UHGV virus genome: UHGV-0213393
Direction: 5' to 3' (one strand)
DNA: 64,000 nucleotides
Source: a virus
Shown in pieces: positions 2,992-29,596 of this stretch. A program made the translations under genes and the position numbers. The first letter of the stretch is position 1. Each line of letters begins with the position of its first letter. A model generated the notes under the pieces. That model had not been told where the DNA came from. It made no database searches and saw only the letters and a program-made list of their open reading frames with translations.

Positions 2992-3066
2992 GATGGTGTA
3001 GCTCAGCGGTAGAGCAGTTGGCTGTTAACCAACTGGTCGGTGGTTCGAATCCACCCACCATCGCCA
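2992..3066 (+). tRNA. tRNA-Asn (anticodon GTT)
   Basis: Hand-folded cloverleaf: acceptor gatggtg/caccatc, anticodon loop ctGTTaa, T-arm ggtggttcgaatccacc, 3' CCA encoded. Confidence 0.85.
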
Positions 3067-3071
3067 ATTTA

Positions 3072-3158
3072 GGGGAGTTAGTCCGTAGAGGTAGCGGTGT
3101 AGACTGTAAATCTACTGTCATTGCGACTCGGGTGGTTCGACTCCATCACTCCCCACCA
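3072..3158 (+). tRNA. tRNA-Tyr (anticodon GTA), long variable arm
   Basis: acceptor ggggagt/actcccc, anticodon loop ctGTAaa, extra arm, T-loop ggttcgactcc, CCA encoded; D-arm not fully canonical by eye. Confidence 0.65.
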
Positions 3159-3162
3159 AATT

Positions 3163-3238
3163 GCCGGTTTAGCTCAGTTGGTAGAGCAGTCGCTTTGTAA
3201 GCGAATGGTCAGCGGTTCGATCCCGTTAACCGGCACCA
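3163..3238 (+). tRNA. tRNA-Thr (anticodon TGT)
   Basis: acceptor gccggtt/aaccggc, D-arm gctcagttggtagagc, anticodon loop ttTGTaa, T-loop ggttcgatcc, CCA encoded. Confidence 0.85.
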
Positions 3239-3479
3239 ACACAACAGGTAAGAGCATTTGTAGAGTTCGACTCTCTACCGTGGGCTTTTTCCCGCGATGC
3301 GAGCCATAAATGCTCTTTCCGTTGTGGTGAATGCGCGTTGCTGGCGCGCAAGTCCGCCCTATGGCAACGAGGCGGCGTAGTAAATATCGATGCCTCAGTC
3401 ATCAAGCGCACTGACCGGCCTTATGGGCTATGAAAAAAAGAGGCGCAGTCGGAGATCAGTACCGACCACCACAATCACT

Positions 3480-3566
3480 GGAGAGTAGGGAGCATGGTGC
3501 TCAAGCGGTCTTGAAAACCGTCCCGTCGCGCAAGCGATGATGGTTCGATTCCATTACTCTCCGCCA
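3480..3566 (+). tRNA. tRNA-Ser (anticodon TGA), long variable arm
   Basis: acceptor ggagagt/actctcc, anticodon loop ctTGAaa, long extra arm, T-loop ggttcgattcc, CCA encoded. Confidence 0.65.
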
Positions 3567-3995
3567 TCGCAACGTTAAGAGTATTTGGCTAATTAAGCGA
3601 ATGCCGGAAGCAGAACCGGATCACCAAATGCGTACAGGCGTCATCGCCGCCCAGTCAGCCAAATGCTCTTACCATTGCGGTGAATGCGGCTAAGCGCACG
3701 CGGAACAGTTAAAACAGTAAAGGTGGTCTTTTTACTGGCGTAACGAGAATCCATAAGTGATCCGGCGTTAATTGTTAACTGGTTAACGTCACCGGGAGGC
3801 ACCCGGCACCGCAACCTAACAGCAATGGCGTTTTGTCTTAAAAGGTGGCTGCAAGTGATGGATTTTTGGGCGTTTGCCGATAAAAACCCGGAGTGGACAT
3901 TATTGTTTCTGCTGGTGGTTGCATACGGGGTAGAGCAAGCGGCAAAAGCCTTACGCGGTTCTGGCAAAAAGCGTAAGCGTAATTAACAGTAATCT

Positions 3996-4071
3996 GGCCC
4001 TTTAGCTCAGTGGTTAGAGCGGGCGACTCATAATCGCACGGTCACCGGTTCAAGTCCGGTAGGGGCCACCA
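3996..4071 (+). tRNA. tRNA with CAT anticodon (Met, or Ile if lysidine-modified)
   Basis: acceptor ggccctt/aggggcc, D-arm gctcagtggttagagc, anticodon loop ctCATaa, T-loop ggttcaagtcc, CCA encoded. Confidence 0.8.
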
Positions 4072-8887: not shown

Positions 8888-9925
8888 TTACCAGAGTTTT
8901 GCCGCGTACATCGTTTGTGTGAATGTGTACCCATAGCGTTCTTCAACGCTTTTACCGTATTTTTTCCTGGCTTCAGTAAGGCGGATGCCTGTCAGGTCAT
9001 CGCCGGAGGCAATCATAACTTCCAGTAGTTCCAGGTCCATTTTATCCAGCCTTGCCATTGCATCTTTAGCCTCTTGAATTTTCCGGCTAACGATCTGGTG
9101 TATGGCTGGATCGGCTTCGGCCAGCATTTTATCTGATTTGTTTTTTAAACTCTGATTGCGGATATCAATGTTTCTCAGGATATATGACTTCACGACATAG
9201 CTTGGCTGCTGCTTTTCCAGATCACGAACCCGATAAAGGTCAAATTCGCCGAGAAGTCCGCACGGAAGCGGTTTAATGCCAGTGTAAATGGTAAGGGTAC
9301 GGCGCTCACCAACGTTGTTAACAACGGGAATCTCTGTGTTTGCTTTTCTTGCAAAGATCAGCGCACCGTGCGCACCCACTCGGAAGCGTGAAAGTCCATT
9401 GTTGCCCTCGATATTGGTGGTAATCACCACATCGGTATAACCTTCTTTTCTTGCGCGGTATACCTCGCCCTCACGTTCAGCGGCGAAGAATCTGCGTTCT
9501 TCTTCAAGCGCACCGACAACCTGTGAAAATATCCTGTTTTTCATGCTTTTCTTTATAGTTTTATCGTATTTTTTCAGCAGGTCTTCGCGCGTAAATGTTC
9601 TCGTTGTGGTTGCGCTTTGCATAACGATATGCGTACTCTGATTAGTATCCTCAACAATGAATGGGATCGGTAAATAAACCGACTCAACAATGTTTGAGGC
9701 TTTGTCATCATCCTTGCGACACAGATCAACAAAGGCTTTCCATTCGGCTATGCATTTTTCAGCTTCTTCTAATACAGCCGGATCATGTGTTAATGCAACA
9801 TGGCGAAATTCCTCGCCAACATAACTGGTATCATGGAAAACAGAGTTTGCGACCACCAGCTCTTTCCACCGTTCAGCGGTTTGCAGGAACCGTTTGTACT
9901 CATTCTCGATCGACTTCTTACTCAT
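8888..9925 (-). CDS. hypothetical protein; candidate C1-type repressor by synteny only
   Basis: Start chosen at MSKKSIENEY with RBS AGGA; sits between terminase and the lox/cre module, where P1 carries c1; operator-like motif in its own promoter. Confidence 0.5.
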   Translation of the reverse strand: MSKKSIENEYKRFLQTAERWKELVVANSVFHDTSYVGEEFRHVALTHDPAVLEEAEKCIAEWKAFVDLCRKDDDKASNIVESVYLPIPFIVEDTNQSTHIVMQSATTTRTFTREDLLKKYDKTIKKSMKNRIFSQVVGALEEERRFFAAEREGEVYRARKEGYTDVVITTNIEGNNGLSRFRVGAHGALIFARKANTEIPVVNNVGERRTLTIYTGIKPLPCGLLGEFDLYRVRDLEKQQPSYVVKSYILRNIDIRNQSLKNKSDKMLAEADPAIHQIVSRKIQEAKDAMARLDKMDLELLEVMIASGDDLTGIRLTEARKKYGKSVEERYGYTFTQTMYAAKLW

Positions 9926-27051: not shown

Positions 27052-27627
27052 ATGAAGCAAAGCTATTGGGAGAAACAGACACAAAAAGCCCTGCAAAAAC
27101 TGGCTGATCCGAAATGGCGGGAGGAACAAAGGGCAAAGCGTCTTCAGCAAGCTCAACGCCAGCAGCAGCGTGCGCGAGAAAAAGCCGCATCGCCTGAATA
27201 TCGGCAAAAGAAAATTGAAAAAGCGAAGCAATATGAACAGCGAAGAAAAGAGAAGGCCGCTTCTGCTCCTGTCAAAAAAACTCGCGCGTCACGCGGCCTG
27301 AAAGGCAGAACACTCACAGCAGATGAGCGCCGGATACAAACTGCCATCGGTGCTCTCCCCTGCATTGCCTGCCATATGCACGGACAGCATAGCCCTGTGG
27401 TATCCCTGCACCACATCTTCGGAAGAACAGCAGAGAACGCGCATAAATACGTCCTCCCTTTGTGTAAATGGCACCATCAACACGCAGCGCCAGCAGAGAT
27501 CCGCGAGCAATACCCCTGGTTGGTTCCTGTTCATGCTGATGGAAAAATAGGCGGCAAAGCAGATTTCAGGCGGCACAATGCTGATGAAATGACGTTGTAT
27601 CAGATGGTGACTGAATTAATAAATTAA
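27052..27627 (+). CDS. ref: Ref-like HNH-motif protein (recombination enhancement function-like)
   Basis: Lys/Arg/Gln-rich N-terminus then CIACHMHGQ...HHIFG...CKWHH Cys/His cluster; flanked by operator motifs as P1 ref is by C1 operators. Confidence 0.55.
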   Translation: MKQSYWEKQTQKALQKLADPKWREEQRAKRLQQAQRQQQRAREKAASPEYRQKKIEKAKQYEQRRKEKAASAPVKKTRASRGLKGRTLTADERRIQTAIGALPCIACHMHGQHSPVVSLHHIFGRTAENAHKYVLPLCKWHHQHAAPAEIREQYPWLVPVHADGKIGGKADFRRHNADEMTLYQMVTELIN

Positions 27628-27642
27628 TTTTCTAACATTTTA
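27620..27642. promoter_or_regulatory. operator-like motif copy
   Basis: aattaattttctaacatttt after the ref-like stop. Confidence 0.5.
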
Positions 27643-27958
27643 AGTTGAATTGTGAGATTCGCCGTTGTACATTCACAACCGATTGGTACACCGGTCAACT
27701 TTTTGAGACAAACCGTTTGGTTTTTCGTATGATTGCCGCCGCCATACCAATGGCGGTGCAATATAGGTGGCTGAAAAGCCCCCGTTGACTCACGGTGTTC
27801 CAACCTTTATTGCGCCGCCACCAGACCGTGGAACAGTCGATGGCGGCTCCGAAAGCAAGGAGTCACTACACTATGAACAGCTACTGTCTTTTCCCATCAC
27901 TCGTTGTCCGCCACTCACGCGATAATCTGCATTCTTTACTCGCGCTGGGGGTGTCAAA

Positions 27959-28126
27959 ATGACCGTTCGCTACCTCAACTTTCAAATCCAGAACATCACT
28001 GGCGGTTGCTATGACTGGTTTGTCACTCTCGGAAAAGAAGTGTTCACCGGGAAGCTGGATGAAGTGAAAGCTAAAGCAATGGCCTACGCCTGCAAGCAAG
28101 CCCAAAAGAAGAAAAGAAAAGCATAA
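27959..28126 (+). CDS. possible small basic protein (55 aa), absent from ORF track
   Basis: Hand translation MTVRYLNFQIQNITGGCYDWF...KQAQKKKRKA; G-rich SD-like sequence upstream; terminator downstream. Confidence 0.3.
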   Translation: MTVRYLNFQIQNITGGCYDWFVTLGKEVFTGKLDEVKAKAMAYACKQAQKKKRKA

Positions 28127-28232
28127 GAAAACACACAGTTGCGCCCTGGCATTATCGTGGGGTATATTTCTACGGCACCTTAGAAAAACGGGTGCCGGGA
28201 TTGGAACCCCGGATAATGTCAAAGGCGACACA

Positions 28233-28255
28233 GACGCCGAACGCGTCTTTTTTTG
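28233..28255 (+). terminator. rho-independent terminator
   Basis: gacgc-cgaac-gcgtc followed by ttttttt. Confidence 0.7.
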
Positions 28256-28439
28256 TGTCATGCCATCGCACAGCCATACTTAGCGTTTAGCTCAGAGATC
28301 AATGGTAGTGCTGGCTGGGCTGCCGAAAGGCAGGCCGGTTCCCTTTGACGCCGGTAGTTCCAACCCAGTCAGTGCTACCGCCATTGAGATTGGAACCTCA
28401 CGCGGTAGCTCCTTAACTTAGTCAAAGGAGGCTGCCAAT

Positions 28440-28655
28440 ATGGCTACTATCCCTACCCCAACTCATTCTGAATTTATCTGGCGTTTCTATTCCTGCCAAA
28501 AACACCTCTATATCTGCGTAATGGCTGCTACCGAAGCAGAGGCGCGCTCATACCTTCCCGAAGAACCCTGCATTTTTGCTGCTCGCTTCACTCTTGATGC
28601 GATGGAGATCCTCAATTACTGGAATCTGCCAATGAACTGCGTGGAGGTGCACTGA
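28440..28655 (+). CDS. small protein overlapping the antirepressor start (icd-like position)
   Basis: 71-aa ORF whose stop overlaps the next ATG; arrangement recalls P1 icd-ant. Confidence 0.4.
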   Translation: MATIPTPTHSEFIWRFYSCQKHLYICVMAATEAEARSYLPEEPCIFAARFTLDAMEILNYWNLPMNCVEVH

Positions 28656-29596
28656 TGAATCTGTCCATCTCTCAAAAAGCGACAATGACCAGTATTGAGA
28701 TCGCGGAACTGGTAGGTAAGCGTCATGATAATGTGAAGCGTACCATTGAAGTATTAACTAAAGGTGGTGTCATTCAATTTCCTCAAATTGAGGAAATTGA
28801 AAATAAACAATCAGTTGGCCCTCGTCGATTTTCCAAGGCTTACATCTTTGAAGGCGAACAAGGCAAGCGCGATAGCATCATTGTCGTCGCGCAGCTCTCT
28901 CCCGAATTCACCGCCCGGCTGGTGGACCGCTGGCGCGAACTGGAGAATGCCAGGGGACCGTTAAAATCAAAAGCCGAAATCTTGGCCGAAATGGCGCAAA
29001 TGCATCTTGAGCATGAACGCCGGATCAACGCCGTTAATGCCCAGGTAGCCGAAGTATCGGCACAAGTGTCCAAAGTCGCTGAAACCGTCGAGCAAATAAA
29101 GAAAGGCAATATTCCGGAAGGCTACATTAGCTACCGCCAGTTAGCGGCAAAATGCGGCCTGACTGAAGCCAAATGCCGTAACCTGGTCAATGCGTATCGG
29201 ATTCCCACCGATACACATGAGTTTTTAACTCCCGATGGTTTGCTCGCGAGACGCTCCATTGTGGCCCTGGCCCCCTTCCGGAAAGCCTTTAAGCAGGTTA
29301 TGTCGGAGGCAGAACCACGTAACAAACGCTGGTATCATCCCAGGATGGGGCTATTTCAGGCCATTCACCATCCTGTGCCTGAAAGTCCAAAGGCAAACCT
29401 GTCGTTGCATACCGCCAGAGAGAAGATTAAAACAGGGTATGCAACCGTATGCCGTCGAGCATCCTGGCCTGAAAGTGTCTGGGTATGGCCCGAAAGAGGC
29501 TCACGGAAAAACTGGCGCACCATTCGCGACGGCAAAATCTGTGCGATTGATTTACAGCCAGAAGATGTAGCAGCGACCGACTGGATTGTTAGTTAA
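28655..29596 (+). CDS. Rha-family phage regulatory protein / antirepressor-like
   Basis: N-terminal TSIEIAELVGKRHDNVKRTIEVL matches the Rha/antirepressor N-terminal signature. Confidence 0.65.
   Translation: MNLSISQKATMTSIEIAELVGKRHDNVKRTIEVLTKGGVIQFPQIEEIENKQSVGPRRFSKAYIFEGEQGKRDSIIVVAQLSPEFTARLVDRWRELENARGPLKSKAEILAEMAQMHLEHERRINAVNAQVAEVSAQVSKVAETVEQIKKGNIPEGYISYRQLAAKCGLTEAKCRNLVNAYRIPTDTHEFLTPDGLLARRSIVALAPFRKAFKQVMSEAEPRNKRWYHPRMGLFQAIHHPVPESPKANLSLHTAREKIKTGYATVCRRASWPESVWVWPERGSRKNWRTIRDGKICAIDLQPEDVAATDWIVS

Follow-up and report, generated by a model that had tools for sequence, protein, structure and literature searches.

A predicted immI-type immunity locus with two tandem C4-type antisense RNA switches in a D6-like phage-plasmid

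In the immI immunity locus of phages P1 and P7, the elements run in the order a1-b1-c4-a2-b2-icd-ant. In the P1 annotation, an operator and the promoters come before a1. The a element has 7 nucleotides (nt) and the b element 8 nt, each in three copies. The C4 RNA folds into two hairpins closed by a long stem, with a' in an unpaired segment and b' in a loop. The ribosome-binding site of icd is overlapped by b2, and icd overlaps the next gene. C4 reportedly pairs with a2 and b2 and blocks icd translation, and hence the antirepressor, and its processing is said to require RNase P (Citron and Schuster 1990, 1992; Biere et al. 1992; Riedel et al. 1993; Hartmann et al. 1995). P1 and P7 reportedly differ in the specificity of a and b (Citron and Schuster 1990). 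The downstream of the two P1 immI promoters is constitutive. The other is controlled by C1, and the P1 annotation places the operator Oc4 over its -35 hexamer. Here we describe a region of the 64,000-nt stretch of DNA from virus genome UHGV-0213393 (this whole stretch is called the window below). The region is very probably an immI-type immunity locus of a D6-like phage-plasmid, with two tandem antisense RNA switches of the P1 c4 kind. We refer to them as module 1 (27626 to 28126) and module 2 (28139 to 29596).

A second group of related loci is found in Gifsy-1 of Salmonella and in Shiga toxin (Stx) phages. In Gifsy-1, the IsrK RNA acts in trans to activate translation of a downstream, coupled antirepressor gene, and Hfq binding was shown in the same work (PMC4825925). 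That paper treats the orf45 region as an mRNA with an open reading frame (ORF), not as a C4 antisense RNA. At the Gifsy-1 IsrK-orf45-anrP locus and the Stx phage loci, an IsrK leader scoring above the Rfam threshold is followed by C4 and then by a coupled antirepressor-type gene, as in module 2, and the record of Stx phage F039 annotates isrK and C4 RNAs in the same order. From its position, we infer that "orf45" is the frame across the C4 element. These loci have no icd, and the "orf45" frame is coupled to or fused with the antirepressor gene, whereas module 2 has an Icd homologue in between, as P1 does. The a1/b1 leader of P1 matches both the Rfam c4-a1b1 model (51 bits) and the isrK model (35 bits). 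Therefore, the IsrK family corresponds to the a1/b1 leader of immI-type loci.

Escherichia phage D6 is a P1-related plasmid prophage. The stretch from 27600 to 28700 is 94.6% identical to D6, and about 119 D6-like plasmids from E. coli, Salmonella, and Shigella match it at 93 to 99% identity. D6 and the D6-like plasmids (for example, pYU39_89) have the same locus with the same gene order and both modules. For one D6-like plasmid, c4, icd, and the antirepressor, along with another c4/icd region, were noted in 2019 (PMC6799933). Therefore, the system and its duplication were already known at the annotation level. None of the accessible papers describes how module 1 is built, which specificity alleles occur, or the IsrK/C4 equivalence.

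Module 2 resembles P1 immI element by element. The order is the same, the a and b repeats have the P1 lengths, the C4 RNA (C4-2) shares the P1 fold, b2 lies on the icd ribosome-binding site, and icd overlaps the gene that follows (Table 1). C4-2 aligns to model positions 1 to 87 of 87 of the Rfam C4 family (E value, 1.5e-14). Its predicted fold (-46.5 kcal/mol) has a long closing stem, which is tRNA-like, two hairpins, and a 3' tail GCCA. The a' junction pairs with a2 and the b' loop with b2, so that the duplex would cover the icd ribosome-binding site. The duplicate upstream sites a1 and b1 lie inside a full-length match (model positions 1 to 77 of 77) to the Rfam isrK family (RF01394). The Rfam c4-a1b1 model scored only 22.4 bits on this leader (threshold, 46.7), so isrK fits better. 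Matches to the C4 and isrK models recur in D6 and other relatives. The module 2 promoter is kept in all relatives, and its -10 hexamer ends 7 nt before the isrK match.

Table 1. Features of the two modules in the window
Feature	Position	Strand	Details
Putative C1-type operator AATTTTCTAACAT	27626-27638	+	7 nt upstream of the module 1 -35 hexamer
Module 1 promoter	27645-27673	+	TTGAAT, 17-nt spacer, TACATT; read from sequence
C4-like RNA number 1 (C4-1)	27746-27825	+	Rfam C4, 42.3 bits (threshold, 45)
b' loop of C4-1, UGACUC	27786-27791	+	unpaired
a' junction of C4-1, UGUUCCA	27796-27802	+	unpaired
a2-1 target, UGGAACA	27829-27835	+	complementary to all 7 unpaired a' nt of C4-1
b2-1 target, GAGUCA	27860-27865	+	complementary to the whole 6-nt b' loop of C4-1
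Leader ORF, 29 amino acids (aa)	27873-27962	+	stop overlaps next start (ATGA)
55-aa protein gene, module 1 output	27959-28126	+	phrog_7786 (unknown function), E value 8e-41
Module 2 promoter	28139-28168	+	TTGCGC, 18-nt spacer, TATATT; read from sequence
IsrK-type leader RNA	28175-28253	+	Rfam isrK, 61.3 bits (threshold, 50)
a1 target mimic, UUGGAAC	28201-28207	+	hairpin loop of IsrK-type leader
b1 target mimic, GUCAAAGG	28218-28225	+	next hairpin of IsrK-type leader, then terminator
Intrinsic terminator of IsrK-type leader	28232-28255	+	stem 28232-28248, then T-run
C4 antisense RNA (C4-2)	28298-28385	+	Rfam C4 (RF01695), 77.1 bits (threshold, 45)
b' of C4-2, CCUUUGAC	28342-28349	+	loop of hairpin 2
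a' of C4-2, GUUCCAA	28357-28363	+	unpaired junction
a2 target site, UUGGAAC	28390-28396	+	icd leader
b2 target site, GUCAAAGG	28421-28428	+	overlaps icd Shine-Dalgarno AAGGAGG (28425-28431)
icd homologue, 71 aa	28440-28655	+	NF033153, 49.4 bits (cutoff, 25)
Antirepressor-type gene, 313 aa, Rha family	28655-29596	+	start overlaps icd stop (TGATG)

The 71-aa product of module 2 is 56% identical to P1 Icd in an alignment (63% by tblastn), and its D6 equivalent is annotated as Icd-like. By its family, it is predicted to be a cell division inhibitor and a coupling ORF. The 313-aa protein matches PF09669 (37.5 bits; cutoff, 29.9) and phrog_63, "anti-repressor Ant" (E value, 1.4e-60). P1 Ant1 had no tblastn match in the window at an E value of 0.01. 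The putative antirepressor role of the 313-aa protein comes from its family annotation and its position. Module 2 also differs from P1 immI in its surroundings. The kilA-repL and sim genes are not adjacent, and the upstream motif is a different one that accompanies module 1 and not the C4 promoter. The terminator of the a1/b1 leader is stronger than in P1 and of the IsrK type, and an entire further module comes before this one.

A sequence-only reading of this DNA had proposed that a P1 c4-like antisense RNA controls icd-ant translation. The Rfam matches, Icd homology, P1 element order, and covariation (Table 2) all support this. That reading saw a single P1-like module. The canonical switch is indeed there, but the region holds two modules. 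The element order is of the P1 type. The antirepressor is a Rha-family protein without homology to P1 Ant1 or Ant2, and no P1-type C1 operator was found in the window. All of the repeats it had listed are present: GTTCCAACC at 27797 and 28357, GATTGGAACC at 28199 and 28388, GGTAGTTCCAACCC at 28353, and GATTGGAACCTCACGCGGTAGCTCC at 28388, with each 9- or 10-nt repeat at just two sites in the window. The upstream copies had been taken as complements of the icd leader. This holds for the copy at 28357, which is a'. However, the copy at 28199 is identical to the icd leader, which makes it a target mimic (a1), and the copy at 27797 is part of a separate C4-like RNA with its own downstream targets. 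The b repeats, GTCAAAGG at 28218 and 28421 with the complement CCTTTGAC at 28342, had been missed. Other parts of that reading stand as they were made. The terminator is real, the 71-aa and 313-aa ORFs overlap by one base, and the approximately 810 bp from 27628 to 28439 hold no real-looking ORF of more than 55 aa. The 55-aa ORF is a real gene, judged by its codon position substitutions and its phrog_7786 match. The GC-rich stem-loops fold far better than shuffled sequences (z of -5.3 for 27746 to 27825 and -5.0 for 28298 to 28385).

To compare the a and b elements, we aligned module 2 from 21 sources, which included D6-like elements, the P1-like phages RCS47, JL22, and 673R5, an Stx phage, and P1. 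At least five versions of each element occur, and a change in any one copy is matched in the other two, which preserves complementarity (Table 2). For a'-a2 and b'-b2 taken together, 96.6% of cells were paired, and 9 of 15 pairs had changed on both sides. For a1-a' and b1-b', the values were 95.9% and 10 of 15. None of 500 shuffles reached either result. The a'-a2 helix alone was paired in 97.5% of cells (5 of 7 pairs changed on both sides), and the b'-b2 helix alone was paired in 95.8% (4 of 8). Slid controls gave 19 to 58% pairing, or 25 to 58% when the pairs were moved by 1 to 3 columns. Such covariation is expected if the RNAs pair and difficult to explain if the elements are protein-binding sites.

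Table 2. Versions of the a and b elements in module 2 and its relatives
Source	a1/a2	a'	b1/b2	b'
Window	UUGGAAC	GUUCCAA	GUCAAAGG	CCUUUGAC
D6	UUGAGAC	GUCUCAA	GCAAAAGG	CCUUUUGC
Relative L012	UUGGUCU	AGACCAA	GUCAAAGG	CCUUUGAC
Stx phage F039	UUAGGAC	GUCCUAA	b1 AAUCGAGG, b2 AAUCAAGG	CCUUGAUU
P1	UUGACAG	CUGUCAA	b1 GUUAGUGC, b2 GUUAGUGA	UCACUAAC

P1 and P7 differ in specificity through a and b (PMC6906374), and so would the relatives compared here. The window differs from D6 in both elements. Therefore, heteroimmunity between the two is expected at this locus. Alleles are mixed among natural isolates: one type (L005) has the a element of the window with the b element of D6, and RCS47 has the reverse. 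A further complementarity lies just past a2, where GCGGUAGC (28402 to 28409) can pair with GCUACCGC (28374 to 28381) in the 3' strand of the C4 closing stem. These two segments also covary in relatives (93% paired; 4 of 8 pairs changed on both sides). They could form an alternative hairpin of the unprocessed transcript, with a2 shown in its loop.

By analogy with P1, module 2 would work as follows. Its transcript would start at a promoter that has no copy of the operator-like motif AATTTTCTAACAT nearby. The first 79 nt, the IsrK-type RNA, carry a1 and b1 and would end in a leaky terminator. Read-through transcripts would continue across C4 and a2, then across b2 at the ribosome-binding site of icd, and on into icd and the antirepressor gene that overlaps it. 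RNase P would presumably release C4-2, as it does C4 in P1. Its a' and b' would pair with a2 and b2 and block icd translation, on which the antirepressor would depend (in P1, on the resulting protection from premature termination). With icd translation blocked, the antirepressor would be off and the lysogen immune. The short IsrK-type RNA would bind the same a' and b' segments. It is most likely a positive input, which either titrates C4 or opens a cis-folded transcript. The a and b sequences would set the immunity specificity.

Module 2 might instead work mainly as described for Gifsy-1 IsrK. The leader a1 and b1 would then pair in cis with a' and b' to give a translationally inactive transcript, and the ORF from the AUG at the 5' edge of C4 (28302 to 28421; 39 aa here) would be translated. 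We consider this possible, though clearly the less probable account of module 2. It overlaps with the C4 explanation that we favor, and the two are compatible. The isrK model scores higher on this leader (61 bits) than on that of P1 (35 bits), and in Stx phage the frame from the AUG at the 5' edge of C4 runs into the antirepressor gene, which matches the position of "orf45." In Gifsy-1, a tagged "orf45" product was found, anrP translation depends on orf45 translation, and IsrK activates in trans (PMC4825925). The covariation of the 8-nt element at 28402 to 28409 with the C4 3' strand is also compatible with alternative folds of a long transcript. However, the 39-aa frame ends 19 nt before the icd start and is uncoupled from it. 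Its length is not conserved (72 aa in L012), and it has no protein family match. Furthermore, icd with its own b2-covered ribosome-binding site sits between C4 and the antirepressor gene, as in P1, and the Gifsy-1 study itself reports an approximately 80-nt RNA processed from the region, which fits a C4-like RNA (PMC4825925).

Module 1 lies directly upstream. Its C4-1 RNA aligns to all 87 positions of the Rfam C4 model (E value, 6.6e-6), with the three-part shape of P1 c4 (-36.5 kcal/mol) and a 3' tail ACCA, and a match was found in every D6-like relative (38 to 42 bits in the relatives). Both of its unpaired segments are fully complementary, in every variant, to sites that follow downstream in order. 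The chance of a2-1 and b2-1 arising in this order within the 50-nt spacer is about 2e-5. The b2-1 site overlaps a Shine-Dalgarno sequence, AAGGAG (the two together span 27856 to 27865), 8 nt before the ATG at 27873. C4-1 has the architecture of the family and complementarity to a downstream ribosome-binding site. Duplex energies from sliding windows that included stem bases were noisy and uninformative, and exact complementarity of the unpaired segments was used instead.

Across about 30 variants, the 80-nt C4-1 and both target sites are near-invariant, whereas variation is found in the promoter spacer, in the leader, and between the two sites. A U.U mismatch in the outer stem of C4-1 is a C-G pair in the L005 type, and in L004 a changed loop makes the b pairing longer, at 7 nt. 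In Klebsiella michiganensis, one element (L045) carries a reduced C4-like version with a single hairpin, which the Rfam C4 model did not detect. Its a' segment GUUCCG(GC) faces (GC)CGGAAC, a compensatory change on both partners, and its b' segment GUUGACUCC faces GGAGUCAAC on the Shine-Dalgarno sequence over 9 nt. By these predicted pairings, L045 keeps the logic of module 1 with a different sequence.

The b2-1 site precedes the 29-aa leader ORF. This ORF aligns with both ends of an intact 61-aa Icd-like protein in the relative L003 (MN.Y...C.F...RH), and we read it as an internally deleted remnant of a second icd. It has no match to NF033153, to which the intact L003 counterpart scores 47.1 bits. 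In four elements (L003, L004, L014, and L045), an intact 61-aa icd-1 follows the C4-like RNA and is itself followed by a small gene of 48 to 55 aa; module 2 is absent from all four. Module 2 and the antirepressor gene are likewise absent from the D6-like elements L036 and L037; in these two and in L003, L004, and L014, unrelated reverse-strand genes follow the small-protein gene. Distant relatives of icd-1 formed four protein clusters only, of which one (Klebsiella) was informative. The frame and its ATGA overlap are retained in leader variants of 29 and 31 aa. However, the peptide sequence is not conserved, with 2 synonymous and 17 nonsynonymous substitutions (a count that leaves out one frameshifted copy). 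The 29-aa ORF is apparently retained for its coupling role alone, as a leader.

The 55-aa gene behaves differently. It has 34 synonymous and 15 nonsynonymous substitutions, distributed 10/4/35 over the three codon positions, a pattern that clearly points to purifying selection. The gene was found in 33 viral contigs, 119 plasmids, the Klebsiella element (48 aa), and a metagenome contig (58 aa). An AlphaFold model of the protein (predicted local distance difference test score, pLDDT, 87) has four strands and a C-terminal helix. A search of the PDB with this model gave no fold match (best E value, 2.4), Pfam gave only a weak DUF3319 match, NCBIfam gave none, and a scan of genome contigs for clues to its function found nothing. 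In some D6-like plasmids (L050 and L051; 1672 to 2898), an IS200/IS605-type insertion element with TnpB/OrfB and a Y1 transposase lies at the 3' end of the small-protein gene and alters the C terminus of the protein.

Upstream of C4-1, the promoter hexamers are conserved across D6-like variants, and the spacer is variable; the promoter scores 8/12, below the cutoff of the promoter scan. The 13-nt motif AATTTTCTAACAT next to it (extended consensus, about AAnTTAATTTTCTAACA) has 13 copies in the window with at most 2 mismatches, against 2.75 expected, and none of 100 shuffles reached 13. The copies are at 402, 1647, 5500, 9942, 11339, 22099/22118, 26976/26995, 27626, 41045/41064, and 49134. They include three closely spaced inverted pairs, one of them directly upstream of ref, and one copy lies just upstream of a c1-like gene (9215 to 9907, minus strand). 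This gene encodes a distant homologue of P1 C1 (21% identity over 241 aa; tblastn E value, 1.7e-5). The arrangement of motif and then -35 hexamer is common to L045, L049, and L003. By analogy with the many C1 operators of P1, AATTTTCTAACAT is probably the operator of a D6-type, c1-like repressor. A motif at one promoter only is similar to the arrangement in P1 immI, where one promoter is under C1 control. The 17-bp P1 C1 operator (Op51/Oc4) itself, ATTGCTCTAATAAATTT, had no match in the window with up to 3 mismatches. A local variant of the P1 consensus was unique in the window and was dropped in favor of the repeated AATTTTCTAACAT.

In module 1, we propose that a promoter flanked by this motif, probably a c1-like repressor site, would drive a smaller C4-like RNA that pairs with two sites farther downstream, of which the latter overlaps the Shine-Dalgarno sequence of a vestigial icd. 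The leader ORF would be translationally coupled to the 55-aa gene. This layout would give a self-limiting, repressor-controlled pulse of the 55-aa protein. A candidate for an a1/b1-like mimic in the module 1 leader, GATTGGTACACCGGTCAAC at 27681, was rejected: its central bases and the T-run after it are not conserved, and only a hairpin is. Cross talk between C4-1 and module 2 was rejected as well. In this window, the a' segment of C4-1 shares GUUCCA(A) with the module 2 a sites. The D6 module 2 a sites differ while C4-1 does not, so cross-regulation is not conserved.

The upstream C4-like element and the truncated icd could also be a decaying relic, left by an earlier duplication or recombination, that regulates nothing, with the 55-aa gene simply driven by its promoter. 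The subthreshold Rfam score of C4-1 and the internal deletion of icd-1 in the window would fit this, as would the expression of the small gene without C4-1 in one metagenomic contig (L049) and a damaged module 1 copy in one plasmid (L006). We regard it as unlikely. In about 30 variants, the 80-nt RNA has stayed near-invariant next to a leader and a promoter spacer with many changes, and both targets are invariant on either side of a variable spacer, which would not be expected of a relic. Such changes as there are leave the pairing intact or lengthen it. The leader frame and its ATGA are kept despite free amino acid change and a 2-codon length difference, and the Klebsiella homologue holds the same logic with different sequences.

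The least tenable alternative, one to which we give almost no weight, is that the TTGGAAC/GTTCCAA and TCAAAGG/CCTTTGA repeats are operators for DNA-binding proteins and not RNA pairing partners: they are indeed short direct and inverted repeats within a regulatory region, but the inverted copies coincide exactly with the unpaired loop and junction of an RNA that is structured and matches a curated family, their three copies co-change as reverse complements through at least five versions, each of which would need a co-evolving protein, and the P1 annotation lists the sites as C4 RNA targets.

Several points weigh against reading the region as two c4-type switches. Family membership, anatomy, complementarity, covariation, coding selection, and coupling geometry were observed here. 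However, RNA processing, the 5' and 3' ends of the RNAs, and repression in vivo are projected from work on P1 and Gifsy-1, as are repressor binding and antirepressor activity. C4-1 scores just under the Rfam gathering score, and its pairings are short (6 and 7 nt). It barely varies among D6-like elements, so its covariation comes mainly from one distant homologue and a few single changes. No clear a1/b1 mimic is conserved in the module 1 leader of the D6-like variants. In L049, the small gene lies behind a plain promoter without C4-1, which makes module 1 an optional, dispensable regulatory layer. In module 2, the Rha-type protein is unrelated to P1 Ant1 and Ant2, and its putative target repressor, the c1-like protein, is only 21% identical to P1 C1.

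A broader proposal, which we hold to have an even chance of being right, is that D6-like phage-plasmids carry two orthogonal C4-type switches in series. The upstream switch, with its operator-like motif, subthreshold C4 paralogue, and vestigial icd, would gate the 55-aa protein as a second output of the immunity circuit, and the a and b elements of the downstream switch would be shuffled among isolates.

The annotation of this locus in public records is uneven. In the D6 record, the equivalent genes are a Ref-like nuclease, three hypothetical ORFs, the Icd-like protein, "anti-repressor Ant" (orf82), and a pmgF homologue. No RNA genes are annotated there, and ORFs of 40 aa, 55 aa, and, in antisense, 99 aa (orf84) are called instead. 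Similar protein ORFs are drawn over the RNA genes in the window (28302 to 28421, plus strand; 27881 to 28261, minus strand) and in L005 (3174 to 3293), and PGAP has an "ash family protein" of 39 aa lying across C4. The 39-aa frame has no family match here, and its length is not conserved. All of these calls are probably spurious.

In the P1-like phages RCS47 (L041, 1235 to 1720) and JL22 (L042, 1235 to 1745), an isrK-C4-icd-antirepressor module lies directly after pacB and is 92 to 95% identical to module 2. Each of these records also has a second place that matches module 2. These copies suggest that the immI-type module moves between phage-plasmid families. Elsewhere in the window is a cluster of tRNA genes (2992 to 4068), one of them just below the tRNA-Sec threshold, and a subthreshold STnc100-like match (3676 to 3813) falls within the cluster region.

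The core of this locus is textbook phage biology: the P1 c4 paradigm, with an IsrK-type leader, would operate in D6-like phage-plasmids. The three-way covariation of a1/a'/a2 and b1/b'/b2 is a clean comparative proof of the pairing model. IsrK and "orf45" of Salmonella align with the a1/b1 leader and C4 of P1, which joins two literatures that do not cite each other. Standard annotation missed the second module, because its RNA falls below the Rfam cutoff, and it lays doubtful protein ORFs over the RNAs. If two switches do act in series, the 55-aa protein might be, for example, a small anti-immunity or superinfection factor, and the shuffled a and b alleles would create a mosaic of heteroimmune types. 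D6-like phage-plasmids are frequent in E. coli, Salmonella, and Shigella, often in the company of resistance plasmids, and their a and b alleles give a way to predict which of them are heteroimmune.

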